Below, in pieces: positions 15,981 through 36,096 of a stretch of 62,599 nt of DNA. The DNA comes from Candidatus Poribacteria bacterium. GTDB lineage: Bacteria > Poribacteria > WGA-4E > WGA-3G. Position numbers and translations under genes: made by a program. The stretch is taken from NCBI GenBank assembly GCA_003635305.1, contig PYJE01000200.1, forward strand, positions 27,171-89,769, written 5' to 3'. The first letter of the stretch is position 1, and every line of letters begins with the position of its first letter. The notes under the pieces were generated by a model. That model saw only the letters and a program-made list of their open reading frames with translations. It made no database searches and was not told the origin of the DNA.

Positions 15981-17150
15981 GTGTCATATCTATCTGACGA
16001 TTGGTTAAAAACAGAATACGCAGCCCTTAAACAGGCAGGTTTATCGCGGCACCTTCGCACCGTGATGAGCGCGCCGACTGGCAGAATTATCCTTGATGGA
16101 CGCGAAGTCATCAACCTTGCTTCCAACAACTATCTCGGTTTAAGCACGCACCCAAAAGTGCTTGATGCCGCGGTGGAGGCGACGCGCGCTTTTGGCACAG
16201 GCGCGAGCGGCTCTCGCCTTATTTCCGGTAACAGTGAACTTTACGCAACGCTGGAAGCCGCCCTCGCAAAGGCGAAAGGCACGGAGGCGGCTCTCGTCTT
16301 TAGTTCAGGTTACGCCGCCAATACCGGTGTCATCCCAGTGCTTGCCGGCGAACGCGCGCTGATTTTGAGCGACGCACTCAACCACGCCAGTATCATAGAC
16401 GGATGCCGGCTCAGCCGTGCGACGAAGAAGGTTTATCGGCACTGCGATGTCGCACATCTGAAAGCGTTGTTGGCGGAATCCGCAGGGTTTCAGCGACGGT
16501 TGATTATCACCGATGGCGTTTTCAGCATGGATGGCGATATCGCGCCGCTGCCCGATATTTGCGAAGTCGCGGCGCAACACGACGCGATGGTATTGGTAGA
16601 CGACGCGCACGGGTTCGGCGTTTTAGGCGAAAATGGCGGCGGCACCGTCGCGCACTTTGGATTACAACACCAAGGGATTATCCAGATGGGCACGCTCAGC
16701 AAGGCAATCGGGGGACTGGGCGGCTATATCGCAGGAAGCCGTGCCTTAATTGAATTGCTCATTAACCGTGCGCGCGGCTTCATCTTCACGACAGGGCTCC
16801 CTCCCGCGACATTAGCCGCTGCAACGGCTGCGCTCAATATCATGCGTTCCTCGCCAGAGTTGCGACAGCATCTGCTTTCACACGCGAAACGCCTCAAAAC
16901 GGCGTTGGTGGAATTAGGGTTTGATTTACTGCCGAGTGAAACGCAAATCTTGCCTGTGGTGCTTGGCAGTCCTCAGCGCGCGGTGCAAGTTGCAGAGACG
17001 TTGCTTTCGGCAGGCGTATTCGCTCCGGCGATTCGGCCGCCGGCTGTTCCATCGGGAACAAGTCGCTTGCGCGTTACGGTGATGGCATCGCACACCGATG
17101 AGGATATTGAGCAGGCGATTGATGCGTTTGCGCTTTGCGCGCAAATTTGA
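15981..17150 (+). CDS. bioF: 8-amino-7-oxononanoate synthase (alpha-oxoamine synthase family; KBL not excluded)
   Basis: INLASNNYLGLS, GSRLISGN, DDAHGFGVLG and GTLSKA (PLP lysine). 389 aa, GTG start. Confidence 0.7.
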   Translation: MSYLSDDWLKTEYAALKQAGLSRHLRTVMSAPTGRIILDGREVINLASNNYLGLSTHPKVLDAAVEATRAFGTGASGSRLISGNSELYATLEAALAKAKGTEAALVFSSGYAANTGVIPVLAGERALILSDALNHASIIDGCRLSRATKKVYRHCDVAHLKALLAESAGFQRRLIITDGVFSMDGDIAPLPDICEVAAQHDAMVLVDDAHGFGVLGENGGGTVAHFGLQHQGIIQMGTLSKAIGGLGGYIAGSRALIELLINRARGFIFTTGLPPATLAAATAALNIMRSSPELRQHLLSHAKRLKTALVELGFDLLPSETQILPVVLGSPQRAVQVAETLLSAGVFAPAIRPPAVPSGTSRLRVTVMASHTDEDIEQAIDAFALCAQI

Positions 17151-17159
17151 AATTTTCAT

Positions 17160-17189
17160 TTGACAACATTGCGCAATTAATGCTATTAT
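17160..17189 (+). promoter_or_regulatory. Promoter candidate TTGACA-18 nt-TATTAT upstream of the first TIR-like gene
   Basis: Read directly. The spacer shares gc..attaatgcta with the box at 17885-17914. Confidence 0.4.
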
Positions 17190-17300
17190 AGTTTTGAGGA
17201 AGGGCAGAAGTTCTGCTTCATGGAGATGAGGCTAAATGATGCCAGTCCCATAATTTTTTAGTAAGGAGTCTGCCTCTTTTCAGCAATTTGAGGCACTATC

Positions 17301-17756
17301 ATGAATGAAAAAGTGTTCATCGTCCATGGACAGGATGAAGCGGCAAAACTTGCTGTTGCTAGGTTCGTGGATAAAGTTGGCCCAAACTTGGAACCAGTCG
17401 TTCTTGACGAACAACCAAGTGAAGGCCGAACGATCATTCACAAGTTTAAAGAGCATGCCGCCGAGGCCTGCTTTGCGGTGGTTTTGCTGACACCCGACGA
17501 TGTTGGCGGACCGAAAGATAAACCAGACGAACGTAACCTGAGAGCTCGCCAAAACGTTGTCTTGGAACTCGGTTATTTCTTGTCGGAACTCGAACCTGAA
17601 CGAGTCTGTGTTCTCTATAAAGAAGGCGTTGAACTCCCCTCGGATATATATGGCTTAGTCTATGTCCCGATGGATAGGTTTGATGGTTGGCAACTGAAAC
17701 TAGCGAGGGAAATGAAGGCGGCGGGCCTCTCCATCGATCTCAACAGACTTTTTTAA
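17301..17756 (+). CDS. Stand-alone TIR-like nucleotide-binding domain protein (CAP12/PycTIR type, COG4271-like)
   Basis: VFIVHGQDEAAK...FAVVLLTPDDVG...RARQNVVLELGYF...RVCVLYKEGVELPSDIYG matches my recollection of the PF10137 block order. 151 aa, domain only. Confidence 0.75.
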   Translation: MNEKVFIVHGQDEAAKLAVARFVDKVGPNLEPVVLDEQPSEGRTIIHKFKEHAAEACFAVVLLTPDDVGGPKDKPDERNLRARQNVVLELGYFLSELEPERVCVLYKEGVELPSDIYGLVYVPMDRFDGWQLKLAREMKAAGLSIDLNRLF

Positions 17757-17860
17757 CTGGGGAGCGTCACAGTTCTGTTTGCGATCTGGCGATCACAAAC
17801 TACAGAGACTGGGGAGCGTCACAGTTCTGTTTGCGATCTGGCGAGCGCAAACTACAGAGG
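17757..17860. repeat. 2 x 52-bp tandem repeat, each unit carrying a CTGTTTGCGATC..GATC.CAAACTACAG REP hairpin
   Basis: ctggggagcgtcacagttctgtttgcgatctggcga(tca/gcg)caaactacagag occurs twice, starting right after the TAA stop. Confidence 0.9.
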
Positions 17861-17884
17861 TGGAAGACTTTTCTAACTTTTGAT

Positions 17885-17914
17885 TTGACACCGTTTGCGG
17901 ATTAATGCTAGAAT
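17885..17914 (+). promoter_or_regulatory. Promoter candidate TTGACA-18 nt-TAGAAT upstream of the second TIR-like gene
   Basis: Read directly. Homologous to the box at 17160-17189. Confidence 0.4.
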
Positions 17915-17984
17915 TGGTTCAGTGTTGTCTTTATTTTTCACTGGCGACCGCCGCGCTACATCAGCGTGGAAATGGAGAGAGAGT

Positions 17985-18542
17985 ATGAATGCGAAGAATC
18001 ACGATGTGGGAGCCGCTCTCACAACACCGCCCCCGCTGCTGGGCAGCAGCAAAGCCGCATCTCTGAAAAAACATCGACGCGGCTTCGGCAACGATGTGTT
18101 CATCATCCATGGGAATGACGAGACAGCGAAAACTACCGTCGCGCGGTTCGTGGATAAATTGGGCTTAAAGCCTACTATTTTTCACGAAGAACTTCACAAC
18201 GGACAGCCAGCCCCAGGGAAGTTCAAGCGACTCGCGAACGATGCGGATTTCGCTATCGTCTTGCTTACGGATGACGATGTCGGCGCAGAAAAAGATAAAC
18301 CCGCACAGGATTTGATGCCTAGAGCGCGCGAAGACGTTATCTTTGAACTCGGATATTTCTGGGGAGAACTCGGACATGAACGAGTCTGTGTCCTCTATAA
18401 GGAAGGCATTGAACTGCCATCGGGCATTCAAGAACTTGGCGTTCCGCTGGAGAACACCGAAGCCTGGCAGACGAGATTAACCCGAGAAATGGAACAGGCA
18501 GGCCTCCCTGTCAACTCGGATAAAGCCCGCGATAACCGATAA
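17985..18542 (+). CDS. TIR-like domain protein (CAP12/PycTIR type), paralogue of 17301-17756 with a ~40-aa basic N-terminal extension
   Basis: VFIIHGNDETAK...FAIVLLTDDDVG...RAREDVIFELGYF...RVCVLYKEGIELPSG. The start is moved from the track's 17895 to the ATG at 17985, which has a GGAGAGAGAG RBS and lies downstream of the promoter box. Confidence 0.7.
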   Translation: MNAKNHDVGAALTTPPPLLGSSKAASLKKHRRGFGNDVFIIHGNDETAKTTVARFVDKLGLKPTIFHEELHNGQPAPGKFKRLANDADFAIVLLTDDDVGAEKDKPAQDLMPRAREDVIFELGYFWGELGHERVCVLYKEGIELPSGIQELGVPLENTEAWQTRLTREMEQAGLPVNSDKARDNR

Positions 18543-18554
18543 AGGAGAATGGAA

Positions 18555-18764
18555 ATGTCACATTATACCGCGCAAATCCAATACACCGGCGAATGGTGGA
18601 TTGGATGGATGCATGAGATTTCTGGCGTAAATTGCCAAGAACGGACGCGGGAAGAACTGTTGGAAAGCCTGCAATCCGCGCTTCGCGACATTTTGGAATA
18701 CGACGCGCAGCAAGCAAAACGCAGCGGGGAAGACGCGTTTGAGGTAGTTGACATCGCCGTATGA
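18555..18764 (+). CDS. HicB-family antitoxin-like small protein (UPF0150 fold)
   Basis: YTAQIQYTGEWWIGWMHEISGVNCQERTREELLESLQSALRDILEY fits the short HicB pattern. The AAGGAG RBS overlaps the stop of the TIR-like gene. An alternative ATG is at 18549. Confidence 0.55.
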   Translation: MSHYTAQIQYTGEWWIGWMHEISGVNCQERTREELLESLQSALRDILEYDAQQAKRSGEDAFEVVDIAV

Positions 18765-18823
18765 AATCCAACTCGTCCGCCGCTATCACCGACTCATAGC
18801 AAGGACAAAACTAGGAAAACCGC

Positions 18824-20914
18824 ATGCCTACTCTCGATTTCAGAGGCAAACAATTTATCTATTCGCATCACCTTACCGTGCCTTTTCGCACGCTGGAGGT
18901 AGATGCGGCTAAGTCGTTCAAAAGTCCACCCTTGGATGAGCACGTGCGAGGGACAGGCCCTCGCGCTACGGGCGACACCGGAGGAAACCATCTTTCCTTG
19001 GATGAGCACGTGCGAGGGACAGGCCCTCGCGCTACGGACGACACCGGAGGAAACCCTCCTTCCTTGGATGAGGACGTGCGAGGGACAGGCCCTCGCGCTA
19101 CGGACGGCCCCGGCGGAAACCATCTTTCCTTGGATGAGCACGTGCGAGGGACAGGCCCTCGCGCTACGGACGGCCCCGTCGGAAACCACCCTTCCTTGGA
19201 TGAGAATCTCATCATTCATGGCGATAATTTGCACGCGCTGAAGGCACTCCTCCCGAAATATGCAGGGAAAATTAAGTGCGTTTACATCGATCCGCCCTAT
19301 AACACCGGCAACGAAGGCTGGGTTTACAATGATAATGTCAACAGCCCGATGATGCAAGGGTGGTTGTCGAAAAACTCGCCGATTGACGTTGAAGATATGG
19401 AACGGCACGACAAGTGGCTGTGCATGATGTGGCCGCGGTTGCACCTCTTACGGGAGCTGCTCGCCGAAGATGGCGTGATTTTTATCTCCATTGACGATAA
19501 CGAGGTGCATCTCCTCCGCGCTATCATGGATGAGATTTTCGACGCGCAACGGATTTTCCCCGATGGAAACTTCGTCGGACAATTTGTCTGGGCGGCCGGA
19601 CGGAAAAATAACGCGCGGCTCTTCTCCAACTCGCACGATTATATCTTGTGCTACCTCAAAAATCACGAGTTCCTGAATCAATCGGGAACTACGTGGCGCG
19701 TTCGGAAACAGGGACTGGACGACATCTATAAAAAACACGCCGCACTCCAACGGAAACACGGACAAGATTTTGCGACAATTGAGGGGGAATTGGCGGCATG
19801 GTTTAAAGGGCTCCCCGATGGCCATTCGGCGAAACGGCACAGCGACTACTGTTATGTGGATGGCCGAGGCCCTTACAGTTCCTCAAATACATCCGCCCCA
19901 GGTGGCAATGGGGACAGGTATCCGGTTATCCATCCGACAACGGATAAGCCGTGCGCCATTCCCGCAGGCGGTTGGCGTTATACCCGACAAGAAATGGAGG
20001 CACTTATTGCGGATAACCGCGTCCACTTTGGGACTGATGAAACCTCTGTCCCCAGACGCAAACTTTATCTGAAGGAGACTGAATACGAAGTTCCCTACAG
20101 CGTCTTCTACAAAGATGGCCAAGGGGCAACGAAGCGATTGCGTAGACTTCTTGGGCAGCCTTTCCCGTTTCCGAAAGACGAGGAAGTGCTCAAACCGCTT
20201 TTTGAGGCAGTAACAGGACCGGACGACATTATCCTTGATTCCTTTGCTGGTTCTGGCACCACGGCGCACGCTGTCCTCGCGCTCAACAGAGAAGATGGCG
20301 GCAACCGTAAGTTCATCCTTGTTGAATGTGAAGACTACGCCGACACCATCACTGCTGAACGCGTCCGGCGCGTGATGAACGGCGTGGATTCTGCCAGAGA
20401 TGCAACTCTTCGGCAAGGCTTGGGGGGTTCGTTTACCTATTGCACTCTCGGCGGGACTATTGACGAGGAAGGGATGCTTACCGGTGAAACTTTACCGACT
20501 TATGAGAATTTGGCGAGTTATATTGCGTATGTGGCGACTGGGAGTTCGGTTGCGATGGGGCGAGCGCAACCTACAGGCAGAGATGCGATGGGGCGAGCGC
20601 AACCTACAGACTGCAAACCGGAACGGCATCGAGACTGGGAGAGCTCGCCTACCGGGCAAGAGGACTACTTTTTCGGTGAGACTGAGACCCTTCGTTTCTA
20701 TCTCATCTATGAACCAGACCTTGCCTTTTTGGAGAGCGATGCGGCGGCGTTAGATGGAAATCGGGCGGCGCGGATTGCGGAACAGTGTAAGGCATCGGGG
20801 AAGAAGGCGTATGTCTGGGGTGCGCATAAGTTTATGAGTCAGAAGGAGTTGACTCCGATGGGGATTACGTTTTGTCAGTTGCCGTATAATATTTATCCTA
20901 TTATGGATGGGTAA
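18824..20914 (+). CDS. mod: Type III restriction-modification methyltransferase (Mod; beta-class N6A/N4C MTase) carrying in-frame repeat insertions
   Basis: NLIIHGDNLHALKALLPKYAGKIKCVYIDPPYNTGNEGW (motif IV DPPY) lies N-terminal to ILDSFAGSGTTAHAV (motif I FxGxG). mod-then-res gene order. Confidence 0.85.
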   Translation: MPTLDFRGKQFIYSHHLTVPFRTLEVDAAKSFKSPPLDEHVRGTGPRATGDTGGNHLSLDEHVRGTGPRATDDTGGNPPSLDEDVRGTGPRATDGPGGNHLSLDEHVRGTGPRATDGPVGNHPSLDENLIIHGDNLHALKALLPKYAGKIKCVYIDPPYNTGNEGWVYNDNVNSPMMQGWLSKNSPIDVEDMERHDKWLCMMWPRLHLLRELLAEDGVIFISIDDNEVHLLRAIMDEIFDAQRIFPDGNFVGQFVWAAGRKNNARLFSNSHDYILCYLKNHEFLNQSGTTWRVRKQGLDDIYKKHAALQRKHGQDFATIEGELAAWFKGLPDGHSAKRHSDYCYVDGRGPYSSSNTSAPGGNGDRYPVIHPTTDKPCAIPAGGWRYTRQEMEALIADNRVHFGTDETSVPRRKLYLKETEYEVPYSVFYKDGQGATKRLRRLLGQPFPFPKDEEVLKPLFEAVTGPDDIILDSFAGSGTTAHAVLALNREDGGNRKFILVECEDYADTITAERVRRVMNGVDSARDATLRQGLGGSFTYCTLGGTIDEEGMLTGETLPTYENLASYIAYVATGSSVAMGRAQPTGRDAMGRAQPTDCKPERHRDWESSPTGQEDYFFGETETLRFYLIYEPDLAFLESDAAALDGNRAARIAEQCKASGKKAYVWGAHKFMSQKELTPMGITFCQLPYNIYPIMDG
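18930..19193. repeat. 4 x 66-bp tandem repeat with a GCGAGGGACAGGCCCTCGC REP hairpin, in frame inside mod
   Basis: Units start at 18930, 18996, 19062 and 19128. Each encodes LDEHVRGTGPRAT(G/D)..GGN..S, just before the conserved NLIIHGDNL block. Confidence 0.9.
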
Positions 20915-20962
20915 GGGATTTGGAACGTAGGGTGGGGGCCTGTCCCCCGCCGTGTTAGAGCT

Positions 20963-21195
20963 GCGAGGGACAGGCCCTCGCGCTACGATGAAGGGGCGTT
21001 TAGATGAGGCGGCGTTTAAGCGAGGACTAACGATGGCACGCAACGTTGCGAGGGACAGGCCCTCGCGCTACGATGAAGGGGCGTTTAGATGAGGCGGCGT
21101 TTAAGCGAGGATAACGATGGACCCAACGTTGCGAGGGACAGGCCCTCGCGCTACGATGAAGGGGCGTTTAGATGAAGAGGCGTTTAAGGAAGAAT
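20963..21195. repeat. ~2.8 x 85-bp tandem repeat (REP hairpin plus flank) filling the mod-res spacer
   Basis: gcgagggacaggccctcgcgctacgatgaaggggcgtttagatgaggcggcgtttaagcgagga..aacgtt starts at 20963, 21048 and 21131. The last copy runs into the res RBS. Confidence 0.9.
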
Positions 21196-21199
21196 AACT

Positions 21200-24037
21200 A
21201 TGGAACTTAAAGACTATCAACAGCAAGCATTAGATACCTTGGAACGCTATTTAGTTGCACTGAGGGAGGCGCGCCAGAAGGCAGAGGAACTCGCGGCGGC
21301 ATTAGCATCGCCGGAACTCCCTTCTGTCTTGCAAGAACAAGCGGCGGCCCTGGCAGCGGATGCTGAAGACTACCCGCGGAAAGCGTGGGAAAATCTCCGA
21401 GAAAAGGGAATGTTGCCGGGTATCGCCGCTCAGGTGCCCGAGTATATTCCTCGCGAAACCGCTTCTGGTGCACCTATCCCGCACGTCTGTCTCAAAGTGC
21501 CGACAGGTGGTGGGAAGACGTTGCTTGGGGTGGAAGCGGTGCGTCGTCTTAAACTCGGCAGAGGGTTTCTCTTATGGCTTGTGCCGACGAAAGCGATTTA
21601 TACGCAGACGTGGGATGCGTTTCGGAACCGCGAGCATCCGTATCGGCAGAGCTTGGATCGGGCATCAGGTGGCCGCGTCAAACTGCTCCAAAAAGACGAC
21701 AGGTTCACGAAGCGAGACGTTGAGGACTATCTCTGTGTTATGCTCCTCATGCTGCCTGCCACGAACCGCAATCGGAACAAGGAATTTCTCAAAATGTTCC
21801 GCGATAGCAGCGGCTATGCATCCTTTTTTCCGGTCGAAGACGACATTCGGGAACACCAGGCGTTATCGGAAAAATACCCAGACCTTGAGGTAGTAGGCGA
21901 GCTCGGAGGGGGCGCGGTTACAAACCGCGCCTACGAGGGAGAAGAGCTCGGAGGGGGCGCGGTTGCAAACCGCGCCTACGGGGGAGAAGAGCTTGGAGGG
22001 GGCGCGGTTGCAAACCGCGCCTACGGGGGAGAAGAGCGAGGAGTGGACGCGGTTGCAAACCGCGCCTACGAGGGAGGAGGGGGAGGAGAGTTCGGAGAGC
22101 CCTCCGGTTCCCGAACTGAACCGCATCAACTTCGCGGCATCCTCGCTGTTAATCGCGCGGATAGGTTGATTAAGCAGAGCCTTTTCAACGTGCTGAAATT
22201 GCTACGTCCGACGGTAATCTTGGACGAGGCGCACAAAGCATACGGGAGTCGAAATGCAGAGAACAATCAGCAGTTCGTGGCGGCTGTAAACCGTCTGAAT
22301 CCGCGCTTTGTGTTGGAGCTCTCTGCCACGCCGCAGCTGGGTATCAGCAACATCCTCGTGAACGTTTCCGGTGTCGCTCTCAAGGAAGAGGAGATGGTAA
22401 AACTCCCCATCCACCTGCGGAATTTTCCGGATTCGGATTGGCGGTATACCCTTGCGCAGACGAAGGCGGAACGTGATAGCCTTGAGGAAGCGGCAAGGCA
22501 GTTTCAGACTACCGATGCCCGTTATATCCGTCCCATCGCGGTGATTCGGGTAGATAGGACGGGCAAAAACCAGCGCGATGGCGTTCGGGTGCATGCCGAA
22601 GATGCCCGCGAGGAACTGATGAACGCCCTCGGTGTGCCAGCATCGCAAATCAAGGTGAAATCGTCGGAGCAAGACGAACTCGCTGGTATTGAACTGCTCA
22701 GTCCGTTTTGCCCGGTTCGCTACATTATCACGAAAGATGCGCTGAAGGAGGGATGGGATTGTCCGTTCGCTTATCTGTTGGCACTTTTGGATAACACCAC
22801 GGCGAAGACAGCGATGACGCAGCTCATTGGCAGAGTGATGCGGCAGCCGCATGCCCGCGCCACAAACGTCGCGCAATTGGATAGCTGCTATATCTACTGC
22901 TTCAACCAAAAAGTCGGCGATGCCGTTGGCAATGTCAAGAAGGGGTTAGAGGCGGAAGGGTTAACCGGGCTTTCCGATTACGTTGAGAGTTCGGCGACGG
23001 TGCGTGTTCAGAAAACCGTTCAACGCAGGCAGGAATACCGTGAAGTGGACATCTTTTTACCGCGCGTGTTGCATAAGGAGGGACGCGGCTGGCGAACCCT
23101 CAATTATGAGCGCGACATCTTGAGCGCGCTTGACTGGTATCAGATTGGTGCGGTGGAGCCGGTGGATTTGGAATCGCAGGGGCTCTTTCAGGAGATTCGT
23201 GCCACTATCCATCTGCAGGACGAGGCGGTGATTGAAAAGGCGCGGCAAGACGGTGCCGATGCTGGTTTGGAGCTCGCCTTTTTCGTGCGGCGTTTAGCGG
23301 ATGTCGTGCCGAATCCGTGGCAATCTGCGCGCATTGTCAAAGCAACGTTTAAACTCTACCGCGAACAAGGGATTTCTGAAGAGACCTTGGTTCAGAATAG
23401 GCTCTATCTCTCGGAGGTGTTGAAACACCGCCTGCGCGAACGCATTGAGCAGTTGTCTGAAAACATCTTCCGTGAGAAGTTGGCGACTCACAAAATTCAG
23501 TTTCGCCTGGAGACAGATGTGGCGTTAAACTACGAGTTAGAAAAAACGCTTGAGGTTAACCTGTCGCAGGGTGCCAGACCATTGACGCGGCCGCATGGAG
23601 ATGCGTTGCAACTGAACCTATTTGAGCCGGTTTTCGAGGCGGAATTCAACAATTTAGAGAAAGATTTCGCGCTCTATCTGGACGAAAAATCGGCGATTCA
23701 GTGGTGGCATCGTATCGCGGCGAAGCAGGGATATTTCTTGCAGGGGTGGCGGCGCGAGCGGGTTTATCCCGATTTCATCGCCTGTCTCCAGCGGCGAAAC
23801 CATCATCCGCGACGATTGCTCATCTTTGAGACGAAGGGACAGCAGCTTGAGGGCAACAGCGATACGACTTACAAGCAGCGGTTGATTGCGACTTTAGAGG
23901 AGGCGTATCGGAATTCAAGTTCGTATGGTATGATGAACGCTGCCGGCCCGAATGATTCGGCGATGTCGTTTCGGATGCTGTTTGAAAATAGTTGGCGGGT
24001 GGAGGTTAATGAGGTGATTGGGGCTCGCTGCAGGTAG
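21200..24037 (+). CDS. res: Type III restriction enzyme Res subunit (SF2 DEAH helicase + C-terminal PD-(D/E)xK nuclease) carrying an in-frame repeat insertion
   Basis: LKVPTGGGKT (Walker A), VILDEAHKA (DEAH), QLIGRVMRQ (motif VI), and C-terminal YPDFIA...LLIFETKGQ nuclease motif. 945 aa. Confidence 0.85.
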   Translation: MELKDYQQQALDTLERYLVALREARQKAEELAAALASPELPSVLQEQAAALAADAEDYPRKAWENLREKGMLPGIAAQVPEYIPRETASGAPIPHVCLKVPTGGGKTLLGVEAVRRLKLGRGFLLWLVPTKAIYTQTWDAFRNREHPYRQSLDRASGGRVKLLQKDDRFTKRDVEDYLCVMLLMLPATNRNRNKEFLKMFRDSSGYASFFPVEDDIREHQALSEKYPDLEVVGELGGGAVTNRAYEGEELGGGAVANRAYGGEELGGGAVANRAYGGEERGVDAVANRAYEGGGGGEFGEPSGSRTEPHQLRGILAVNRADRLIKQSLFNVLKLLRPTVILDEAHKAYGSRNAENNQQFVAAVNRLNPRFVLELSATPQLGISNILVNVSGVALKEEEMVKLPIHLRNFPDSDWRYTLAQTKAERDSLEEAARQFQTTDARYIRPIAVIRVDRTGKNQRDGVRVHAEDAREELMNALGVPASQIKVKSSEQDELAGIELLSPFCPVRYIITKDALKEGWDCPFAYLLALLDNTTAKTAMTQLIGRVMRQPHARATNVAQLDSCYIYCFNQKVGDAVGNVKKGLEAEGLTGLSDYVESSATVRVQKTVQRRQEYREVDIFLPRVLHKEGRGWRTLNYERDILSALDWYQIGAVEPVDLESQGLFQEIRATIHLQDEAVIEKARQDGADAGLELAFFVRRLADVVPNPWQSARIVKATFKLYREQGISEETLVQNRLYLSEVLKHRLRERIEQLSENIFREKLATHKIQFRLETDVALNYELEKTLEVNLSQGARPLTRPHGDALQLNLFEPVFEAEFNNLEKDFALYLDEKSAIQWWHRIAAKQGYFLQGWRRERVYPDFIACLQRRNHHPRRLLIFETKGQQLEGNSDTTYKQRLIATLEEAYRNSSSYGMMNAAGPNDSAMSFRMLFENSWRVEVNEVIGARCR
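21899..22078. repeat. 4 x 45-bp tandem repeat with a GGCGCGGTTnCAAACCGCGCC REP hairpin, in frame inside res
   Basis: Units start at 21899, 21944, 21989 and 22034. Each encodes ELGGGAV(T/A)NRAY(E/G)GE, between helicase motifs I and II. Confidence 0.9.
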
Positions 24038-24152
24038 CAATAACCTAGACAAATGCCGATAAATCTGCTATCACCTATATCAACTGCTTTTTTAATGTGA
24101 CGTTTCTATAAAAGGGGTATAATATAGGTACATGCAAAACAGATGAGTTAAG

Positions 24153-24293
24153 ATGGGTGAGGCCGCAGAATTACTCGGCACCACCCGTGAAACGCTGCGT
24201 CGCTGGGAAGAGACTGGCGAATGGCTACCCGCGCGGCAGACGAAAGGCGGGACGCGCTACTATGCCACAGGCGACTTGATGGGCCTGAAATGA
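24153..24293 (+). CDS. MerR/excisionase-type HTH peptide (46 aa), probably the N-terminal remnant of an IS607 serine-recombinase TnpA
   Basis: Below the track's length cutoff. My translation is MGEAAELLGTTRETLRRWEETGEWLPARQTKGGTRYYATGDLMGLK. This is the HTH pattern that precedes the resolvase domain in IS607 TnpA, and no catalytic domain follows. Confidence 0.55.
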   Translation: MGEAAELLGTTRETLRRWEETGEWLPARQTKGGTRYYATGDLMGLK

Positions 24294-24352
24294 AGCCCTC
24301 ACAGAGGCACACAAAGCCTCTCAACCGAAGCAGATAGAGTTGGAGTTGGACG

Positions 24353-25564
24353 ATGGCACTGCTAGCCCACAAGACAGCATTGCAACCGAATAAGGCGCAG
24401 AAGAAGGTGCTGAACCAGCACTGCGACTTCGCGCGCAACGCCTATAATGCCGCCCTGTCCGATTTTAAAGCAGGTTTGGATAACGGCGAATTCCGTTCGG
24501 TTTACGATTTGAAGAAGCTCTTCAACGCACGCAAGCGTGAGGCGTTTCCCGAAATCGATGGAAACCTGTCCATGAACGCAGGCAAGAATGCTATCCACAA
24601 TTTCCACGATGCTGTCAAACGCTGGCAGTCAGGACAGAACAACTTCCCGAAGCGGAAGAAGCATAACAGCCGTTCATCATTCCAAATTGATAACGGCGTT
24701 GGCAGTGTCAAGGTATCGGAGGATGGAAACCAGCACGTCATCCTCCCGAAAATCGGTAAGGTTCGCCTCGCTGAGAAACCACGCTGGACAGGTAAAGTCA
24801 GGCGTGCTGTCATTTCACGGACAGCTCACAGGTGGCAGATTAGCATGCTATTTGAGGTGGACGAACCCGAACCCCCCGATACATCACGTCTTCCCGCTGA
24901 AGGATGTGATGTCGGTATCAGCCAATTGGCAACCCTCAGCGATGGCACGACTTTTGAAAATCCACGCGCACTCCGTGTGCAAGAACGTAAACTGAAACGC
25001 CTGAACCGCAGTCTCTCCCGCAAAACATACCGCAGTGGCGGTTGGTGGAAAGCGAAGGAACTGCTAGCACGGTTGCATTTGCGAATTCGGCATATTCGGA
25101 TGGATGCACATCATCAGGCGACGCACAGGATATTGCAAGGCATTTCCGCGCTAGGCATAGAAAGCCTATCCGTCAAAGGACTGATGAAGAATCGCAAATT
25201 GAGCAAGGCATTAGCCGATGCCAGTCTCGGCGGTTTCCTCGTGAAACTGAAATATAAGGCGGTTCGGCGTGGCATTCGCATTGTGGAGGCAGACAGATTC
25301 TGGCCCTCTACCAAGCGGTGTAGCTCCTGTGGATATGTGAAAAAGAAAGTGTCATTATCCGAACGTGACTACCATTGCGGTGTCTGTGGTTTTCAAGCCG
25401 ACAGAGACGTGAATGCCGCGATAAACCTTAAGCAACTCGCTTCCAGCACGGATGAGCGTCTAAACGCCGTTGGAGCGTCTATAACACCTACCGCGGTAGG
25501 CTGGACGCGTGGAAGGCGGAAAGTCAAACCGAACCAAACGCTAATTGATTTCGCTACTGCGTAA
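24353..25564 (+). CDS. tnpB: TnpB (OrfB) RNA-guided endonuclease, RuvC + zinc ribbon, apparently intact
   Basis: GCDVGISQLATLSDG (RuvC-I D), LGIESLSVKGLMKN (RuvC-II E), CSSCGY...CGVCGF (Zn ribbon) and ADRDVNAAINL (RuvC-III D). 403 aa. Confidence 0.9.
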   Translation: MALLAHKTALQPNKAQKKVLNQHCDFARNAYNAALSDFKAGLDNGEFRSVYDLKKLFNARKREAFPEIDGNLSMNAGKNAIHNFHDAVKRWQSGQNNFPKRKKHNSRSSFQIDNGVGSVKVSEDGNQHVILPKIGKVRLAEKPRWTGKVRRAVISRTAHRWQISMLFEVDEPEPPDTSRLPAEGCDVGISQLATLSDGTTFENPRALRVQERKLKRLNRSLSRKTYRSGGWWKAKELLARLHLRIRHIRMDAHHQATHRILQGISALGIESLSVKGLMKNRKLSKALADASLGGFLVKLKYKAVRRGIRIVEADRFWPSTKRCSSCGYVKKKVSLSERDYHCGVCGFQADRDVNAAINLKQLASSTDERLNAVGASITPTAVGWTRGRRKVKPNQTLIDFATA

Positions 25565-25641
25565 CCTGACGGTACGCAGATTATAGCACATTTGATTAGA
25601 TGTGTCTAGGTTTACTAGTGCGGAGGGGTATGCTGCGGGAG

Positions 25642-25738
25642 AGTAGCACCGCCGCCGTATGTATGCCAAAACGTGGTTGCGCGCTTACAAAGCGCGCCTA
25701 CCGGCTAAGTAGCACCGCCGCCGTATGTATGCCAAAAC
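25642..25738. repeat. REP hairpin flanked by a 31-bp direct duplication of the dcyD-like 3' end
   Basis: agtagcaccgccgccgtatgtatgccaaaac occurs at 25642-25672 and again at 25708-25738. gttgcgcgcttacaaagcgcgcctaccgg lies between the two copies. Confidence 0.9.
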
Positions 25739-26691
25739 AGCACCGGCTCCTCTTCACAATCCTGCGCCTTGACATAGTGTATCAACCCCGCCAACGTCTT
25801 GCCAGTATAGGTATTCTCAAGAGCGATGCCTTCTTGTTCCATCATCATTTCTACTGCGCGCATGCTTGCTTCTGTCGGAATAGCGTAACCTTTGCCGAAA
25901 TCGTGATGCCAGAGCTCAACCGGACGCGGGTTCATCAAGCCGCCATCTGTTGCGCCGACGAGACGCAAGGTCTGCCGCTCCATGCGGGCAACCGTCCACG
26001 CATTAGCGATTATCCAATCGGAGACGCGAATCCCAACGACTTGACTCCGCAACCCCGCAAGCCGCACGCCTGCTATCAAGCCTGCCATCGTGCCGCAAGT
26101 GCCGACAGGAACGAAGATAAATCGCGGTTCTGGCAAAATGTCCTCCTCAATCTGCGATTTGAGTTCCATAACCGCTGTCACGTATCCCACGGAGCCGAGG
26201 GGCGACGAACCTCCTGCGGCGATGAAATAGCGTTCCGGTCCGGTGCCCAACGCGTGCCTCGCTTTCTCATACGCATAACGCGCAAACAGAGTGTGCATAC
26301 GCCGCACCTCGTGAATCTCCGCCGCATTTTCACAAATCGTTTGGTAGTTCAACTCGGAATACTCGGTGCGCGGCTGTCGGAAAAGGAGACACGCCACGCG
26401 GAAGCCTGCCGCTTTTCCGTGAACCACCGTCGCGCGAACGTGGTTGGAACCGGTGGGCCCGATGGTGAAGAGCGTTTGGTAATTTTTCTCCCGCGCATCC
26501 GCAAAAAGATATTCCAATTTTCGCACTTTGTTGCCGCCGCCTAGCGGCCCGCTTAAATCATCGCGTTTTATCCAGAGTGAGTCAATGCCGATGGCGCGCC
26601 CTAAGCGCGGGAGACGATGCACCGGCGTTGGAAAGTTGCCGAGAGAGAGGCGTTTTTTTGTTGTTCGCATGGCGTTTTTTGTTGTTCGCAT
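25705..26691 (-). CDS. PLP-dependent D-cysteine desulfhydrase / ACC deaminase family protein
   Basis: FPTPVHRLPRLG...LWIKRDDLSGPLGGGNKVRKLEYL...GSNHVRAT. The N-terminal MRTTKNAMRTTKK is repeat-encoded, so the true start is uncertain. Confidence 0.8.
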   Translation of the reverse strand: MRTTKNAMRTTKKRLSLGNFPTPVHRLPRLGRAIGIDSLWIKRDDLSGPLGGGNKVRKLEYLFADAREKNYQTLFTIGPTGSNHVRATVVHGKAAGFRVACLLFRQPRTEYSELNYQTICENAAEIHEVRRMHTLFARYAYEKARHALGTGPERYFIAAGGSSPLGSVGYVTAVMELKSQIEEDILPEPRFIFVPVGTCGTMAGLIAGVRLAGLRSQVVGIRVSDWIIANAWTVARMERQTLRLVGATDGGLMNPRPVELWHHDFGKGYAIPTEASMRAVEMMMEQEGIALENTYTGKTLAGLIHYVKAQDCEEEPVLFWHTYGGGAT

Positions 26692-26880
26692 GGCGTTCGG
26701 ATAGGGTTTTGGATTCGATGATGTTTTCTACGTCATCCGTCATTGACGTTGTCAATGACTCCGTTCACTCATGCCGCTTTTTTGTTGTTCGCATGGCGTT
26801 CGGATAGGGTTTTGGGTTCGATGATGTTTTTGACGTAATCCGTCATTGACGTTGTCAATGACTACGTTCACTCATGTTGC
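26659..26880. repeat. 2 x 103-bp tandem leader module (minus orientation) plus a 21-bp partial unit, between the GMC stop and the dcyD-like start
   Basis: gttgttcgcatggcgttcggatagggttttgg.ttcgatgatgtttt..acgt.atccgtcattgacgttgtcaatgact.cgttcactcatg occurs at 26681 and 26784. It contains the dyad GTCATTGAC-aac-GTCAATGAC. Confidence 0.9.
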
Positions 26881-28434
26881 AATTGTCCTTACAATTTGAT
26901 GCGCGACGTAGTCTGCCAAAGCGGCGATAGTTAACGTCGGCGGCACGCCAATCGAAGCAGGAAACAGACTCGCATCGGCGACGAAGAGGTTCCGGACAGC
27001 GCGCGCTTCCCCGGAAAAAGTGACGACAGAAGTCGCCGCATCTTCGCCCATGCGGAGGGTGCCTTGCGGATGACTCGATGCCAGCATCACATCGTTCGGC
27101 ACAACCCCGCGCTGACAGATAATTTCCAAGTCTGCCTCCGTTTTGATGCGAACGTGTTGTGTGTAAGGCATCAAAATTTCTCTTGCACCCGCGGCGAATA
27201 GCAGGCGCGCGGCGTTGATTGCCCCTTCAATCAAAACCGCTTTATCCTCGCGGTTTAAGCGATACGCAATGCGCGGCGTGCCATCGCGATTGAGAGACAC
27301 GCGGCCTGATGTCTTGTCATGCAAGAGGACGAGGAGCGCGGCGATGTGCCGGTAGCGTTCCATCAATTCGCGATGGCTTTTCCCAAATCCCGGTAGACTC
27401 GCCGCGACTATCATCTGTGAGCCAAATGCCGGCATGAGAAGGTATCCGCTGTCGGTGTGAGGTGGGTTACAAACCCTGTCTGCGGTGGAGATATGCGCGC
27501 TTTGTAAGCGCGCATCTTCCACATCCAAAAACTCATCAATATAATAACTTTGCGGAATGCCGAGGTGTCCATCAATAATTTCATCAAAAATGCCGCCGAC
27601 AAACACCGCGGGATGCAGATGCAGATTACGTCCGACATGTCGGTTTAGTTCTGGCAGACGGCTTTTTAACCAGAGTTGCGGCGAATTAATCGCCCCGGCG
27701 GCTAAGACGACTGCCTTGCTGCGGATAGTTAGTTCGCCTGAGGGCAAACGCGCCGAAACGCCGACTGCTTTCCCATTTTCAACCAGCACTGCCTCGGCGA
27801 GGCAGTTGCTGTAAAGTCGCGCGCCGGCCGCAAGTGCCAACGGGATATAGGTGACAGCCATGCTTTGTTTGCCTGCAGCGCGCTTGGAAACCGCGCCTAC
27901 CGGTTCCGTGGGCGTAGAGTTTGGGCATCCAAAGAGACACCTCGCGCCGCACGCAGCGCACGCGCCGCGATTATGCCGTTGGACAGTCCCGCGCCACCCC
28001 ATCGCCTCGCAACCGCGGCGGATCACGGCATTAAGGCGGTTCACTTCAGACTCCTCAATTTGTTTAACGTTAAGCGTTTCTTCCACGCGCGCTAGAGCAG
28101 AAGAAAGTTCTGGGATACCCCATCTGTCCAATAACGGTTGCGGCGGCCGCACCGCGTAACAGAAATTATGCACCGTTGAACCGCCGACACCTCTGCCTTG
28201 CGAGATAAGAATGGCACCGTCGCGCGTCCGACGCAAGCCGCTATCCCAAAAAAGGCGGCGCAACATGTCGGGTTCATATTCGGTGAAGGTGCTCGGTTCG
28301 TGATGCTCGCCTGCCTCTAAAATGATGACAGAAATCCCAGCTTCGGCGAGCTCTTTGGCGACAACCGCGCCGCCCGCTCCGGAACCGATAACGCATACGT
28401 CGGTGGTTTCTCGCGCGTGCCTACTTTTGTTCAC
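26872..28434 (-). CDS. GMC-family FAD-dependent oxidoreductase
   Basis: DVCVIGSGAGGAVVAKELAEAGISVIILEAG FAD fold, and a C-terminal GMC block (HPQGTLRMG). The track ORF extends to 28578 but would overlap the TPR gene by 158 nt. The GTG at 28434 leaves a 14-nt overlap. Confidence 0.8.
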   Translation of the reverse strand: MNKSRHARETTDVCVIGSGAGGAVVAKELAEAGISVIILEAGEHHEPSTFTEYEPDMLRRLFWDSGLRRTRDGAILISQGRGVGGSTVHNFCYAVRPPQPLLDRWGIPELSSALARVEETLNVKQIEESEVNRLNAVIRRGCEAMGWRGTVQRHNRGACAACGARCLFGCPNSTPTEPVGAVSKRAAGKQSMAVTYIPLALAAGARLYSNCLAEAVLVENGKAVGVSARLPSGELTIRSKAVVLAAGAINSPQLWLKSRLPELNRHVGRNLHLHPAVFVGGIFDEIIDGHLGIPQSYYIDEFLDVEDARLQSAHISTADRVCNPPHTDSGYLLMPAFGSQMIVAASLPGFGKSHRELMERYRHIAALLVLLHDKTSGRVSLNRDGTPRIAYRLNREDKAVLIEGAINAARLLFAAGAREILMPYTQHVRIKTEADLEIICQRGVVPNDVMLASSHPQGTLRMGEDAATSVVTFSGEARAVRNLFVADASLFPASIGVPPTLTIAALADYVAHQIVRTIAT

Positions 28435-29584
28435 GATGTGTCTCGTTTCGTGAGCGATAGCGTTGGTAAGCCTTCGCCGCCTTCTCCTGCTCGCCGATTT
28501 GGCGATAAGCGTTCGCCAGATTTCGGTAAACTTGTGGATTATTCGGAGCCAAACGCGCCGCAGTTTCAAACTGCACAATCGCCGGCCGAGGTTTCTCCAA
28601 CATCATATAGACAACGCCGAGGCTATTCCGATACACCGCGCTTTCGGGGCGCGTTTCAACGAGATGCCCGAATACCTCACGCGCTTCAGTGTAAGTCTCC
28701 GTTTGCAGATAACTATAGCCGAGCAGTTCATACCCTTTCTCGTCGCGCGGCGCGATAGCGACACACGCCTTGAGTTCCGCGATAGCGGCATCCCACGCTT
28801 CTCTTTTGATAAGGAGCTCGGCGAGTTGATAGCGGCGTTCTAACCCCTGGGGACTATCCTGAATTGCCCGCCGAAGGCTGGCGAGTTGCTCCTCCTCTTG
28901 CGTCAGTATCTCAAAAGTGCGCAGGGCCTTCCTCCCTTTTGCAATCTCACCGGTGCGGAGATAACAGTTTCCGAGGTTAAAGTGTGCCTTCGCGTGCCGT
29001 TTTTCGCGTTGAATCACTGCTTCAAAGTGTGGCATCGCTTGCGCAAAGTCACCTTTCTGGAAATAGGCGAGCCCGAGCAGATACCGCGCCTCTGTGTCCG
29101 ATGCTTGCTTCAATTGCTGGATAGCGTCCTCAATGCGGTTTTGACGGAGGTAGGCGGTGCCGAGCAGTCTTCGCGCCCGTGGCAAATCTGGCTGCACCTG
29201 CAAGGCGCGTTCCAGCGGTGATATTGCCGCTTTCGCTTGTCCTAGTCCGCTCAGGTATGCTTCACCGAGGCGGCAGTGTGCATCGGCGAAATCTGCATCG
29301 AACCGAATAGCCGTTTGGAACGCTTGAACAGCCTTTCTCCACTGCGATTGTTGTCCGTAGCACAGCCCGAGTTGGTAGTGTGCTGCCGCGAACGATGGCT
29401 CAAGTGCTATCGCGCGCTGAAATTCGGCAAAAGCCTGCGCTGAGGAGAGTGCTTGCATCCCGGCCTGATAGGCGCGCTGCGCCTCGCTCACGTCGGCGCA
29501 GTAGACGGAACCTTCCAGTCCTGATATGGATAAGAAGACTATGAAGATAAAGCGGATAAAAGTAGTTTTCATTTTGGTGTGCAA
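28421..29584 (-). CDS. Secreted tetratricopeptide (TPR) repeat protein
   Basis: Signal peptide, then repeated A..Y..A...P....A...LG..Y 34-mers throughout. 387 aa. Confidence 0.8.
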   Translation of the reverse strand: MHTKMKTTFIRFIFIVFLSISGLEGSVYCADVSEAQRAYQAGMQALSSAQAFAEFQRAIALEPSFAAAHYQLGLCYGQQSQWRKAVQAFQTAIRFDADFADAHCRLGEAYLSGLGQAKAAISPLERALQVQPDLPRARRLLGTAYLRQNRIEDAIQQLKQASDTEARYLLGLAYFQKGDFAQAMPHFEAVIQREKRHAKAHFNLGNCYLRTGEIAKGRKALRTFEILTQEEEQLASLRRAIQDSPQGLERRYQLAELLIKREAWDAAIAELKACVAIAPRDEKGYELLGYSYLQTETYTEAREVFGHLVETRPESAVYRNSLGVVYMMLEKPRPAIVQFETAARLAPNNPQVYRNLANAYRQIGEQEKAAKAYQRYRSRNETHREQK

Positions 29585-31474: not shown

Positions 31475-32503
31475 ATGAAAGAGAGCAGAGTCGGTATTAT
31501 CGGTTGTGGTGGCATTGCGGGCGGCAAACACCTCCCCGGCCATCAAAGCGTCAAAGGCGTTTCGATCATCGCCGCCTGTGACATTGACGAAGCGCGCGCG
31601 AAGGCGTTCGCCAAAAAGCATGAAATTCCGCACGTCTTCAGCGATTACGAAAAACTGGTGGAGATGGAAGAACTCGATGCGGTGAGCGTCTGCACGCCGA
31701 ACAATTTCCACGCCGGTCCGACTATCGCCGCGCTTAACGCGGAAAAACACGTGCTTTGCGAAAAGCCTATCGCGGGGAATGCAGTTGATGGACAAGCGAT
31801 GGTAGATGCGCAAAAAGCAAGCGGTAAAGTCCTCCAGATCGGGTTGCAATCCCGCTTCCGCGCCGCATCCCGCACGCTACGCAAACTCTACGATGAAGGC
31901 TTCTTCGGCGACATCTACTACGCTCGCGCCATGGCGATGCGGCGACGCGGTGTCCCGGCATCTCCATCGTTCTTAAGCAAAGCGATTGCCGGCGGCGGAC
32001 CGCTTATTGACATCGGCGTGCATATCCTTGATGTGCTACTTTGGATGATAGGCTGCCCAAAACCGGTTGAGGCGTTCGGGATGACAGCGAAGAAATTCGG
32101 GCATCGCGCCGATGTTATCAACCCGTGGGGCAAATGGGACCCGGAGCAATTTGAAGTGGAAGACTTCGCGATGGGAACTATCCGCTTTGAAGGCGGGCTC
32201 ACCGTCACGTTAGAGACAGCGTGGGCATCGCATATCGCGAACATCGGCGGCACCTTCTTCATGGGAGAGCTGGCGGGCGCGACTTACGAACCCCTCCAAA
32301 TCTACCTTGACAAGAAGGACGAGATGGTGAACTACACCCCTGAACTCCTCAAAGGATTGCCGGGTGAATTTGAATCGTTCCACACTGCAATCCGCGAAGG
32401 ATTGTCGTCACCGGTGCCAGCCGAAGAGGTGCTGAATGTCGCGAAAATCTTCGACGCGCTCTATGAATCGGCGAGAATCGGCCGCTCCGTGCCGATTCCG
32501 TAA
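31475..32503 (+). CDS. Gfo/Idh/MocA family oxidoreductase
   Basis: MKESRVGIIGCGGIAGGKHL after an AAAGGAG RBS, and VLCEKPIAGN. The track's start at 31427 lies inside the REP array. Confidence 0.8.
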   Translation: MKESRVGIIGCGGIAGGKHLPGHQSVKGVSIIAACDIDEARAKAFAKKHEIPHVFSDYEKLVEMEELDAVSVCTPNNFHAGPTIAALNAEKHVLCEKPIAGNAVDGQAMVDAQKASGKVLQIGLQSRFRAASRTLRKLYDEGFFGDIYYARAMAMRRRGVPASPSFLSKAIAGGGPLIDIGVHILDVLLWMIGCPKPVEAFGMTAKKFGHRADVINPWGKWDPEQFEVEDFAMGTIRFEGGLTVTLETAWASHIANIGGTFFMGELAGATYEPLQIYLDKKDEMVNYTPELLKGLPGEFESFHTAIREGLSSPVPAEEVLNVAKIFDALYESARIGRSVPIP

Positions 32504-32995
32504 GATATTCCGCGCGGCCGTTAATCCGTGCGCGCTTACAACGCGCGCCTACGGTGGGGCCGATGCCGTAAGATATTCCGCGCGGCCGTTAATCCGTGCG
32601 CGCTTACAACGCGCGCCTACGGTGATGCCGATGCCGTAAGATATCCCGCGCGGCTGTTAATTCGTGCGCGCTTACAACGCGCGCCTACGGTGATGCCGAT
32701 GCCGTAAGATATCCCGCGCGGCCGTTAATCCGTGCGCGCTTACAAAACGCGCCTACGGTGATGCCGATTACGTAAGATATCCCGCGCGGCCGTTAATCCG
32801 TGCGCGCTTACAACGCGCGCCTACGGTGATGCCGATGCCGTAAGATATCCCGCGCGGCCGTTAATCCGTGCGCGCTTACAACGCGCGCCTACGGTGATGC
32901 CGATGCCGTAAGATATCCCGCGCGGCCGTTAATCCGTGCGCGCTTACAACGCGCGCCTACGGTGGGGCCGATGCCGTAAGATATCCCGCGCGGCC
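32498..32995. repeat. 7.3 x 68-bp tandem repeat (minisatellite) with an embedded REP hairpin; not CRISPR
   Basis: Units start at 32498, 32566, 32634, 32702, 32770, 32838, 32906 and 32974. The unit is ccgtaagatat.ccgcgcggccgttaatccgtgcgcgcttacaacgcgcgcctacggtg..gccgatg. The first unit includes the stop codon of the preceding gene. Confidence 0.95.
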
Positions 32996-35289: not shown

Positions 35290-35450
35290 ACAAAACGGAA
35301 CCTCTGTCAAATGGAGAGGGGTTCTAAAAAAGGACAGGCCTTACGCAAATGATGGAACTCGCCACCGGTAGACGCGGTTTCAAGTAGACGCGGTTTCAAA
35401 CCGCGCCTACAAGACTTGTGTTCTGCGTAAGCCTTAAAGGAGAAAAAACC

Positions 35451-35963
35451 ATGACACGCTTAATTTTTTGCCTTATATGCATCTTTTTGGGGTTAATCCT
35501 CAGTTTCTCGGTGCAGGCACAAGAGACAGAACTCGTCAAAGATTACGCAATCGGCTTTCACGGAGCTACGCCCGCGTTTGGCGGAATTAGTTTTCGCTAT
35601 TGTGGACTCGCACCCGTCTATCTACAGACTGTCGGGCGTTTTATCCTCTTGGACCAGGAGAGTGACCATATGTTGGGCGCGGGTGTCTCATACGCCATCT
35701 TTGAGAAGCAAACACGGTTGAACATCGCTAGACTTTACTTCGCCTTGCAAGGCGGTTGGCGATATAAGACCGAAGGCACTCTCCAGACAACGACACTCGG
35801 TGCCGGGCTGGCGTTTGGCGGCGAACTAGTGTTTTCACTCGGTGGCATCCCACTCGGTTTGAACTTGGAAATCGGGCAGGGGTTCGGCAGGGAAAACACA
35901 AGCACTGAATCGAATCCGATGGCCGGCGTTTACGTCGGCGCGGGGATACATGCCTATTTTTAG
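35451..35963 (+). CDS. Small outer-membrane beta-barrel-like protein (hypothetical)
   Basis: AAAGGAG RBS, signal MTRLIFCLICIFLGLILSFSVQAQ, alternating Gly/aromatic beta-strand pattern, and a terminal ..GIHAYF. Confidence 0.55.
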   Translation: MTRLIFCLICIFLGLILSFSVQAQETELVKDYAIGFHGATPAFGGISFRYCGLAPVYLQTVGRFILLDQESDHMLGAGVSYAIFEKQTRLNIARLYFALQGGWRYKTEGTLQTTTLGAGLAFGGELVFSLGGIPLGLNLEIGQGFGRENTSTESNPMAGVYVGAGIHAYF

Positions 35964-36096
35964 GGTGCTTTTGCTATGTAGGCGTGATGGCGCGGTTTCA
36001 AACCGCGTCTACTAGGCATCTTGTATCAATAGGCGCGATGGCGCGGTTTCAAACCGCGCCTACCGGTGGAGGGCGTTGCCGGTGTTGCGTGCTGCA

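Follow-up and report, generated by a model that had tools for sequence, protein, structure and literature searches.

GTAG-type REP units in tandem and in frame in a type III methyltransferase gene of Candidatus Poribacteria: a probable coding minisatellite in a predicted inter-domain tether

Intragenic clusters of GTAG/CGTC-type repetitive extragenic palindromes (REPs) have been described in Opitutus terrae, Thauera and Rickettsia conorii, where they lie in frame in genes of known proteins, encode 43-82 amino acids (aa) and were proposed to sit in flexible linkers or loops (PMC3733652). The same work also describes the tandem reiteration of REP clusters along with the DNA next to them (PMC3733652). 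Here, a 62,599-nucleotide stretch from the genome of a sponge symbiont, a Candidatus Poribacteria bacterium (contig PYJE01000200.1, positions 27,171 to 89,769; termed the window) was analyzed, in which four tandem 66-bp units, each containing a REP, lie within mod, the methyltransferase gene of a putative type III restriction-modification operon. Like the clusters of PMC3733652, the mod array consists of short GC-rich GTAG palindromes in frame which encode tens of residues. Unlike them, it is a regular 66-bp direct repeat with half of the unit being host coding sequence, its copy number differs between near-identical alleles, and it occupies a site at which relatives carry phase-variation tracts. 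The array belongs to the already described class of intragenic REP clusters and adds unusually clear comparative evidence to it.

Other known systems share single traits with this locus. Rickettsia palindromic elements (RPEs) are longer and present in single copy within functional genes; they are not tandemly amplified, and no strain-to-strain differences in their copy number are known. The mod array resembles RPEs, by analogy only, in being a palindromic mobile repeat in frame whose added peptide is tolerated, but it is tandemly amplified and its copy number varies. Coding minisatellites or variable-number tandem repeats (VNTRs), for instance units of 40-100 bp of the mycobacterial interspersed repetitive unit (MIRU) type, are arranged head-to-tail, have lengths divisible by three when coding and are polymorphic through slippage or recombination. 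The mod array has in common with VNTRs the head-to-tail units of tens of bp and the copy-number polymorphism; it differs in a unit seeded by a dispersed REP, an invariant hairpin and a defense gene as host. An in-frame 12-bp repeat in the specificity gene of the Type I enzymes EcoR124I/EcoR124II is located between the target-recognition domains and sets, through its copy number, the length of the recognized spacer, whereas the tether which harbors the mod array is predicted to be disordered and is not part of the recognition domain. Phase-variable type III mod genes also carry a repeat tract in the 5' part of the open reading frame (ORF) which differs in length between strains, but the 66-bp unit cannot switch Mod ON or OFF as theirs do (PMC5909438).

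The array was found on the forward strand at 18930..19204 of the window by Tandem Repeats Finder (head-to-tail, period 66 bp, 4.2 copies, 93% matches, 0% indels, score 459). According to the unit alignment, the units start at 18930, 18996, 19062 and 19128. In codon register they cover 18932-18997, 18998-19063, 19064-19129 and 19130-19195; each begins with TTG GAT GAG and comprises 22 codons. The enclosing ORF (18824..20914, forward strand, 696 aa) is translated from MPTLDF...KSFKSPP through four variants of LDEHVRGTGPRATxDxGGNxxS, i.e. four in-frame reads of LDEHVRGTGPRATGDTGGNHLS and its variants, immediately into LDENLIIHGDNLHALK. A fifth TTGGATGAG, at 19196-19204, continues into native sequence. 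A GTAG-type REP, including its immediate flanks, accounts for about 33 bp of each unit, and the other half, again about 33 bp, is native linker DNA. The first REP core, TGCGAGGGACAGGCCCTCGC followed by GCTAC with the GTAG tag on the minus strand, is located at 18945..18969 and folds as a DNA hairpin with -9.5 to -10 kcal/mol (z = -2.7 to -3.2). The second, third and fourth cores (19011..19035, 19077..19101 and 19143..19167, forward strand) were located by a 19-mer count and a scan for GC-rich hairpins followed by CTAC. The native-linker half of the last unit, CCCCGTCGGAAACCACCCTTCC followed by TTGGATGAG, spans 19172..19204 on the forward strand, was delimited by its homology to the corresponding linker in orthologues without REPs and still contains what remains of a G tract. 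A first-pass annotation of the sequence had placed four units of 22 codons at the same starts, in frame in a type III Mod, and had noticed that a fifth ccttggatgag (seen at 19196) runs into native sequence; Tandem Repeats Finder and the translation agree with both statements, and the array is real.

The host gene mod (18824..20914, forward strand) encodes a putative β-class N6-adenine methyltransferase of type III similar to that of EcoP15I (Pfam N6_N4_Mtase, 2.9e-31). Its assignment as a type III Mod, made earlier from the letters, is backed by phmmer (EcoP15I Mod 4zcf_A, 8.7e-64 from query residue 126 onward), by Foldseek (4zcf_A as the best match of the AlphaFold2 model, E = 8e-35), by PADLOC (MTase_III, 1.2e-168) and by the adjoining res gene. 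The latter (21200..24037, forward strand, 945 aa) encodes a predicted type III helicase-nuclease subunit (PADLOC REase_III, 9.8e-232; Pfam ResIII), and mod-res, known here from sequence, is read as a type III restriction-modification operon. DPPY (aa 156-159) and FAGSG (aa 474-478) enclose the recognition domain. Ahead of the array and in frame with it, an N-terminal peptide was delimited by conservation and by the predicted local distance difference test (pLDDT) of the model (aa 1-36, MPTLDFRGKQFIYSHHLTVPFRTLEVD..., 18824..18931, forward strand); among 105 homologues, conservation reaches at least 90% at each of its residues M1, P2, L4, F6, G8, K9, H15, H16, L17, V19 and P20. Relatives of Mod among species-representative genomes are almost all metagenome-assembled genomes of phyla typical of sponge microbiomes, the closest being Candidatus Poribacteria.

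The repeated core is a genuine REP, as had been claimed; it is of the GTAG type, a GC-rich palindrome with a GTAG tag and copies dispersed mostly between genes. The palindrome reads GCGAGGG-ACAGG-CCCTCGC and is followed by GCTAC. The 19-mer GCGAGGGACAGGCCCTCGC has 12 exact copies in the window versus 0.04 expected from shuffles: four in mod (18946, 19012, 19078, 19144), three in the mod-res spacer (20963, 21048, 21131) and five elsewhere (1228, 4386, 33044, 36473, 47981), the last five all outside gene-like ORFs. Accordingly, 8 of the 12 exact copies are outside coding sequence, and the example coordinates given before (1226, 20963, 36480 and 47978) are correct within a few bases. Each copy of the mod-array REP is followed by (G/C)CTAC, and the same applies to four other palindrome families of the window; the scan returned at least five families, all of which end in CTAC, i.e. 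GTAG on the opposite strand. GTAG at the end of the palindrome is the defining tag of GTAG-type REPs (PMC3733652). As single-stranded DNA, the REP hairpins of the window reach -9.5 to -12.3 kcal/mol. Further copies of the mod-array REP core were found in related Poribacteria loci only. Among JGI metagenome contigs, a single contig contained the REP core with CTAC and no match to the array unit TTGGATGAGNACGTGCGAGGGACAGGCCCTCGCGCTACGG was obtained; no Rfam family matched window positions 17000-26000, and the literature search retrieved no report of REPs in Poribacteria.

Two other identities of the array were rejected. An intrinsic terminator would require a T run, and the hairpin is instead followed by GCTACGG. 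The architecture of a bacterial interspersed mosaic element was rejected for the reason that all four mod-array REPs, as well as those of the res and spacer arrays, share one orientation. The largest REP array of the window is apparently intergenic and is located at 32490-32995 (68 bp x 7.4, the REP GCGCGCTTACAACGCGCGCCTAC plus flank). In addition, the ORF 35418..35963 (181 aa) has REPs on either side in inverted orientation (35384-36063), an arrangement typical of genes for REP-associated tyrosine transposases (RAYTs); it is without a Pfam or NCBIfam match or a transposase signature.

For comparison, five syntenic loci with close Mod homologues (L080-L084) were used and their 5' ends were listed against the window. 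Compared to four 66-bp units in the window, L080 and L082 contain three units each, L083 two and L081 one, with L080 and L081 originating from the same sample, ERZ25070167. L084 contains one such unit and, at the same position, one 54-bp unit with a different REP, GCGAGAGC-GGGC-GCTCTCGC followed by GCTAC. All six REP-bearing alleles are open and in frame through their one to four units, 66 and 54 bp both being multiples of three. The nucleotide identity of the mod core is 97.0-97.4% among the window, L080 and L081 (4, 3 and 1 units) and 97.7% between L082 and L083 (3 versus 2 units). Because alleles with 97.0-97.7% identical cores differ in unit number, the copy number appears to change within roughly species-level divergence. 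The unit is absent from orthologues with ≤ 84% nucleotide identity in the core. The distance from the start codon to NLIIHG amounts to 120-177 nt in 79 species-representative loci of the GTDB compared to 386 nt in the window, and in the alignments conserved host sequence flanks the insert on both sides while the segment is missing from the orthologues. Two expectations of the first-pass annotation are thereby confirmed: the insert is specific to one lineage, neither the orthologues with ≤ 84% core identity nor the 79 GTDB loci containing it, and the unit number is polymorphic (1, 2, 3, 3 and 4 units among close relatives).

The 3' part of the unit, CCCCG[G/T][A/C]GGAAACC[A/C][T/C]C[C/T]TTCC plus TTGGATGAG, is the linker sequence of REP-free relatives. 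This linker reads GGGCGTAGGGTAAACCCTCCTTCCTTGGATGAG in L087 (in context ...GATGGGCGTAGGGTAAACCCTCCTTCCTTGGATGAGAAC) and G9-TAAACCAGCCCTCGTTGGATGAG in L001 (in context ...GAAGGGGGGGGGTAAACCAGCCCTCGTTGGATGAGAAC); unit 2 of the window is identical to L087 at 22/22 positions over AAACCCTCCTTCCTTGGATGAG. The duplicated unit does include host flank, as suspected, and about half of it is native linker. Because half of each unit matches the REP-free linker, the array appears to have arisen by tandem duplication of a REP together with the adjacent linker, and all that is left of the G tract in the window lineage is an interrupted remnant within every unit. In a comparison of 14 units drawn from six loci, 1 variable site was counted in the 30 REP-core columns versus 13 in the other 36 (Fisher's exact test, p = 0.0017), and 10/14 variable sites are first or second codon positions. 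Since the variable sites are mostly first and second codon positions and the REP core is nearly invariant, the 22-residue peptide would be essentially unconstrained, with the REP core held constant at the DNA level. Candidates for the force behind this constancy are gene conversion from genomic copies, a hairpin constraint or the REP machinery.

REP-free orthologues carry a poly-G, poly-C or (CA)n tract at the site of the array, about 75-150 nt past the mod start codon. Tract lengths of individual loci were taken from assemblies and may include homopolymer length errors: G7 in L086 (in frame), G8 in L011, G9 in L001 (twice), L063 and L067, G10 in L029, G12 in L085, C8-C11 in L027, L028, L069 and L070, C16 in L071, C28 in L040 and (CA)13 in L038. 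The tract-bearing loci belong to Poribacteria, Nitrospirales and Dehalococcoidia, and with most of the tracts, the core is not in the frame of the N-terminal peptide. Contingency loci classically have such a layout, and these orthologues probably encode type III methyltransferases of sponge microbiomes which are phase-variable; a literature search found no report of phase-variable methyltransferases in sponge symbionts. These tracts, which coincide exactly with the array site, had been overlooked by the first-pass annotation. It had suggested instead that changes in unit number could phase-vary Mod, a suggestion we do not uphold. Phasevarions require a repeat unit which is not a multiple of three (PMC5909438); this applies to the poly-G, poly-C and (CA)n tracts of the sister loci and not to the 66-bp unit of the window, although the tract length does differ from strain to strain (1, 2, 3, 3 and 4 units in related alleles), as is also expected of a phasevarion. 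In a REBASE survey of type III mod genes, repeat units divisible by three were nearly absent and not phase-variable (PMC5909438). Because 66 bp is a multiple of three and the frame never shifts, the array is not an ON/OFF switch.

In the AlphaFold2 model of Mod, pLDDT is 80-92 at aa 11-40 and the core is confident, with a drop to about 27-29 over aa 42-120, i.e. the insert, and to < 50 over aa 580-611, where a second REP site is located. The insert is accordingly predicted to be a disordered linker which separates the methyltransferase core from the N-terminal peptide. The surface loop considered earlier is matched by a segment predicted as disordered (pLDDT < 50 over aa 42-120), few sequences covering the insert. 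In EcoP15I, the N-terminal domain of Mod intertwines with the Mod2 partner, swings by ~122 degrees between the protomers and decides by its orientation which protomer binds Res, while contact to Res is made by the C-terminal domain (PMC4490356). The dimerization domain of EcoP15I Mod is N-terminal as well and precedes the methyltransferase core; the Poribacteria peptide may be equivalent to it. Because pLDDT drops at both REP sites of Mod and given the domain layout of EcoP15I, the two sites are predicted to fall between domains, one between N-terminal peptide and core and the other between the methyltransferase and C-terminal domains.

In-frame REPs are not confined to this array. The second mod site (20549..20656, forward strand, aa ~576-611) consists of two decayed copies of GTTGCGAT-GGGC-GAGCGCAAC with CTAC, encoding (V)AMGRAQPT, plus remnants. 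It is empty in L084 and in all more distant orthologues and is occupied by different REP families in L080-L083. The site is close to the start of the Mod C-terminal domain, and in L082 a 60-bp duplication there includes native DYFFGETET. In res, an in-frame array of 45 bp x 4.0 (21899..22076, forward strand) is formed by a different REP family, GCGCGGTTGCAAACCGCGC followed by CTAC, and encodes ELGGGAVANRAYGGE four times; the family sequence is GCGCGGTTGCAAACCGCGCCTAC and its copies in the relatives number 0, 1, 2, 2, 3 and 5-6. Copy numbers of the mod and res arrays across the loci (4/4, 3/2, 1/5-6, 3/2 and 2/3) do not covary. The mod-res spacer contains an array of the mod-array REP plus flank, which was found by Tandem Repeats Finder (83 bp x 2.9, 20962..21204, forward strand) and has its end at the res start codon; among relatives, the mod-res spacer measures between 82 and 584 bp. 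As a control gene, the GMC oxidoreductase ORF 26872..28578 (reverse strand) was inspected, and two lineage-specific in-frame REP inserts were found (27485-27522 and 27878-27900); in the relative P0122, RGTGPRPT from the mod-array REP family is encoded at one of these insert sites. The weight initially placed on the location in a defense gene is therefore not justified, the same REP families being inserted in frame in the GMC oxidoreductase of the window and of relatives. The periods of coding arrays (66, 54, 45 and 60 bp) are all multiples of three, whereas those of intergenic REP arrays (40, 47, 59, 67, 68, 83, 88, 205 and 226 bp) mostly are not. Because of this difference, the periodicity contrast is best read as the signature of purifying selection on the reading frame and not of a special function.

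Taken together, we consider it probable that the array is a REP-seeded coding minisatellite which is tolerated in a flexible inter-domain tether, i.e. passenger DNA and not an ON/OFF switch. In one Poribacteria lineage, a GTAG-type REP would have entered mod in the short linker which connects the methyltransferase core to the N-terminal peptide. Head-to-tail duplication of the REP together with about 33 bp of adjacent native linker would have followed, and the copy number would since have drifted between one and four, with slippage during replication or unequal recombination between units as the most likely cause. Because the unit comprises 22 codons and is open in the coding frame, every change in copy number leaves Mod intact, and selection may remove only variants which break the frame. 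Several points weigh against this explanation. The neutrality of the array is something we infer; the array sits at the phase-variation site of its relatives, hence, this site may be functionally sensitive and not merely permissive; and the low pLDDT of the insert is partly due to the thin alignment there. Furthermore, the conservation of the REP core at the DNA level and the different REP at the same position in L084 point to a sequence-level force beyond simple slippage, and the operon is densely occupied, with two independent arrays in mod and a third in res.

Alternatively, the number of 22-residue units could tune the tether between N-terminal peptide and core and thereby Mod2 assembly, Res loading or the efficiency of methylation, as a graded in-frame counterpart to the ON/OFF tracts of sister lineages. 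Such a length modulator would fit an array whose site is precisely that of the poly-G, poly-C or (CA)n tracts of REP-free orthologues, a unit number differing among alleles with at least 97% identity, and an N-terminal domain whose orientation sets the Res-binding protomer in EcoP15I (PMC4490356). We regard it as unlikely, given a peptide which is unconstrained in sequence outside the REP, a similar in-frame REP insert in a metabolic gene, Mod and Res copy numbers without covariation, and the REBASE survey, in which units divisible by three had no role in mod switching (PMC5909438). In a wider version, which is quite improbable in our judgment, whole peptide units in the tethers of both mod and res would frequently be gained and lost without a change of frame, driven by REP hairpins on which a REP transposase possibly acts; if true, this distinct kind of contingency locus would provide graded tuning of assembly or activity in place of the homopolymer ON/OFF switch kept by sister lineages. 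Concerning the amplification step only, RAYT-driven turnover competes with slippage: cuts at the GTAG of neighboring REPs of the same orientation and rejoining would gain or lose exactly one REP-plus-spacer unit, and the mod, res and intergenic arrays would all be products of the REP machinery. The GTAG tag on all REP families of the window, the frequent arrays of same-orientation REPs plus flank (periods 25 to 88 bp), the invariant REP core next to diverging flanks and the different REP in L084 are in line with this idea, which we treat as a possibility of low probability. RAYTs are usually single-copy per genome, and no match to a Y1 transposase (Y1_Tnp, RAYT) was obtained among the 26 window ORFs scanned, the window representing only 62.6 kb of the genome. 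The boundaries of the array are found within the native flank TTGGATGAG and not at GTAG, exactly as ordinary tandem duplication predicts, and RAYTs are not known to cut and rejoin units in this way.

The remaining alternatives concern whether the array is translated or real at all. If translation started at the TTG of a TTGGATGAG after GGAGGAAACC, Mod would be made without the N-terminal peptide and the REPs would form an extragenic leader. P0007 and P0008 were indeed called from exactly this TTG where the upstream tract is out of frame, and a GGAGG-like motif precedes the TTG by 13 nt in each unit. Nevertheless, an untranslated array is very unlikely: conservation of the N-terminal peptide extends across phyla and most orthologues have it fused in frame, six of six alleles are stop-free in frame through the array with one other forward frame having a stop in every unit, and the length of the 54-bp variant unit of L084 is divisible by three as well. 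An artefact of repeat mis-assembly is hardly conceivable. An exact-sequence look-up of the 696-aa Mod of the window returned no record in a public gene collection, which would fit such an error, but the units differ from one another (93% matches) by unit-specific substitutions, and five independent assemblies, three of them perhaps from long reads judging by their depth-tagged 'ctg...' names, have one to three units at the same position.

The coding minisatellite is a clean comparative case of a selfish palindromic repeat turning into protein-coding sequence, since the ancestral linker and the states with one, two, three and four copies are all kept in close relatives and the steps can be read directly. 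Genomes of Poribacteria would thus contain several very active GTAG-REP families which invade coding regions, with the practical hazard that such genes are mis-sized by gene callers and short-read assemblers. The mod tracts of sponge symbionts may matter more than the array itself, as they suggest that phase-variable methyltransferases, for which host-adapted pathogens are the main known source, are at work in sponge microbiomes as well.

Further observations were made in the neighborhood of the operon and at related loci. Upstream of mod, two ORFs with TIR domains (17301-17756 and 17895-18542; CAP12/Pycsar-type TIR, PADLOC PDC-S35) are separated by a 52-bp x 2 repeat at 17756-17859; in relatives, at most one TIR gene is present. 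Directly downstream of res, a TnpB-like ORF (24353-25564; OrfB_IS605, Cas12f1-like TNB domain) is followed closely by a REP at 25673-25701; this ORF is missing from the syntenic L084, where res abuts a PALP gene. The target-recognition region of Mod (alignment columns ~340-430) differs sharply among otherwise close alleles (window, P0001 and P0002 versus P0003, P0004 and P0008), which is consistent with swapping of recognition domains between Mod alleles. The mod 5' cassette, i.e. N-terminal peptide plus tract, is present in multiple copies per genome (L001 4001-5010; L063 4001-4150; L069 4001, 5755, 7536 and 8381). In L001 it is duplicated around an inserted gene pair which by eye only is HicA/HicB-like, and L087 has a 5' cassette in common with the window clade at a core identity of only 62%. 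This pattern suggests recombination which swaps mod alleles behind a common 5' module.

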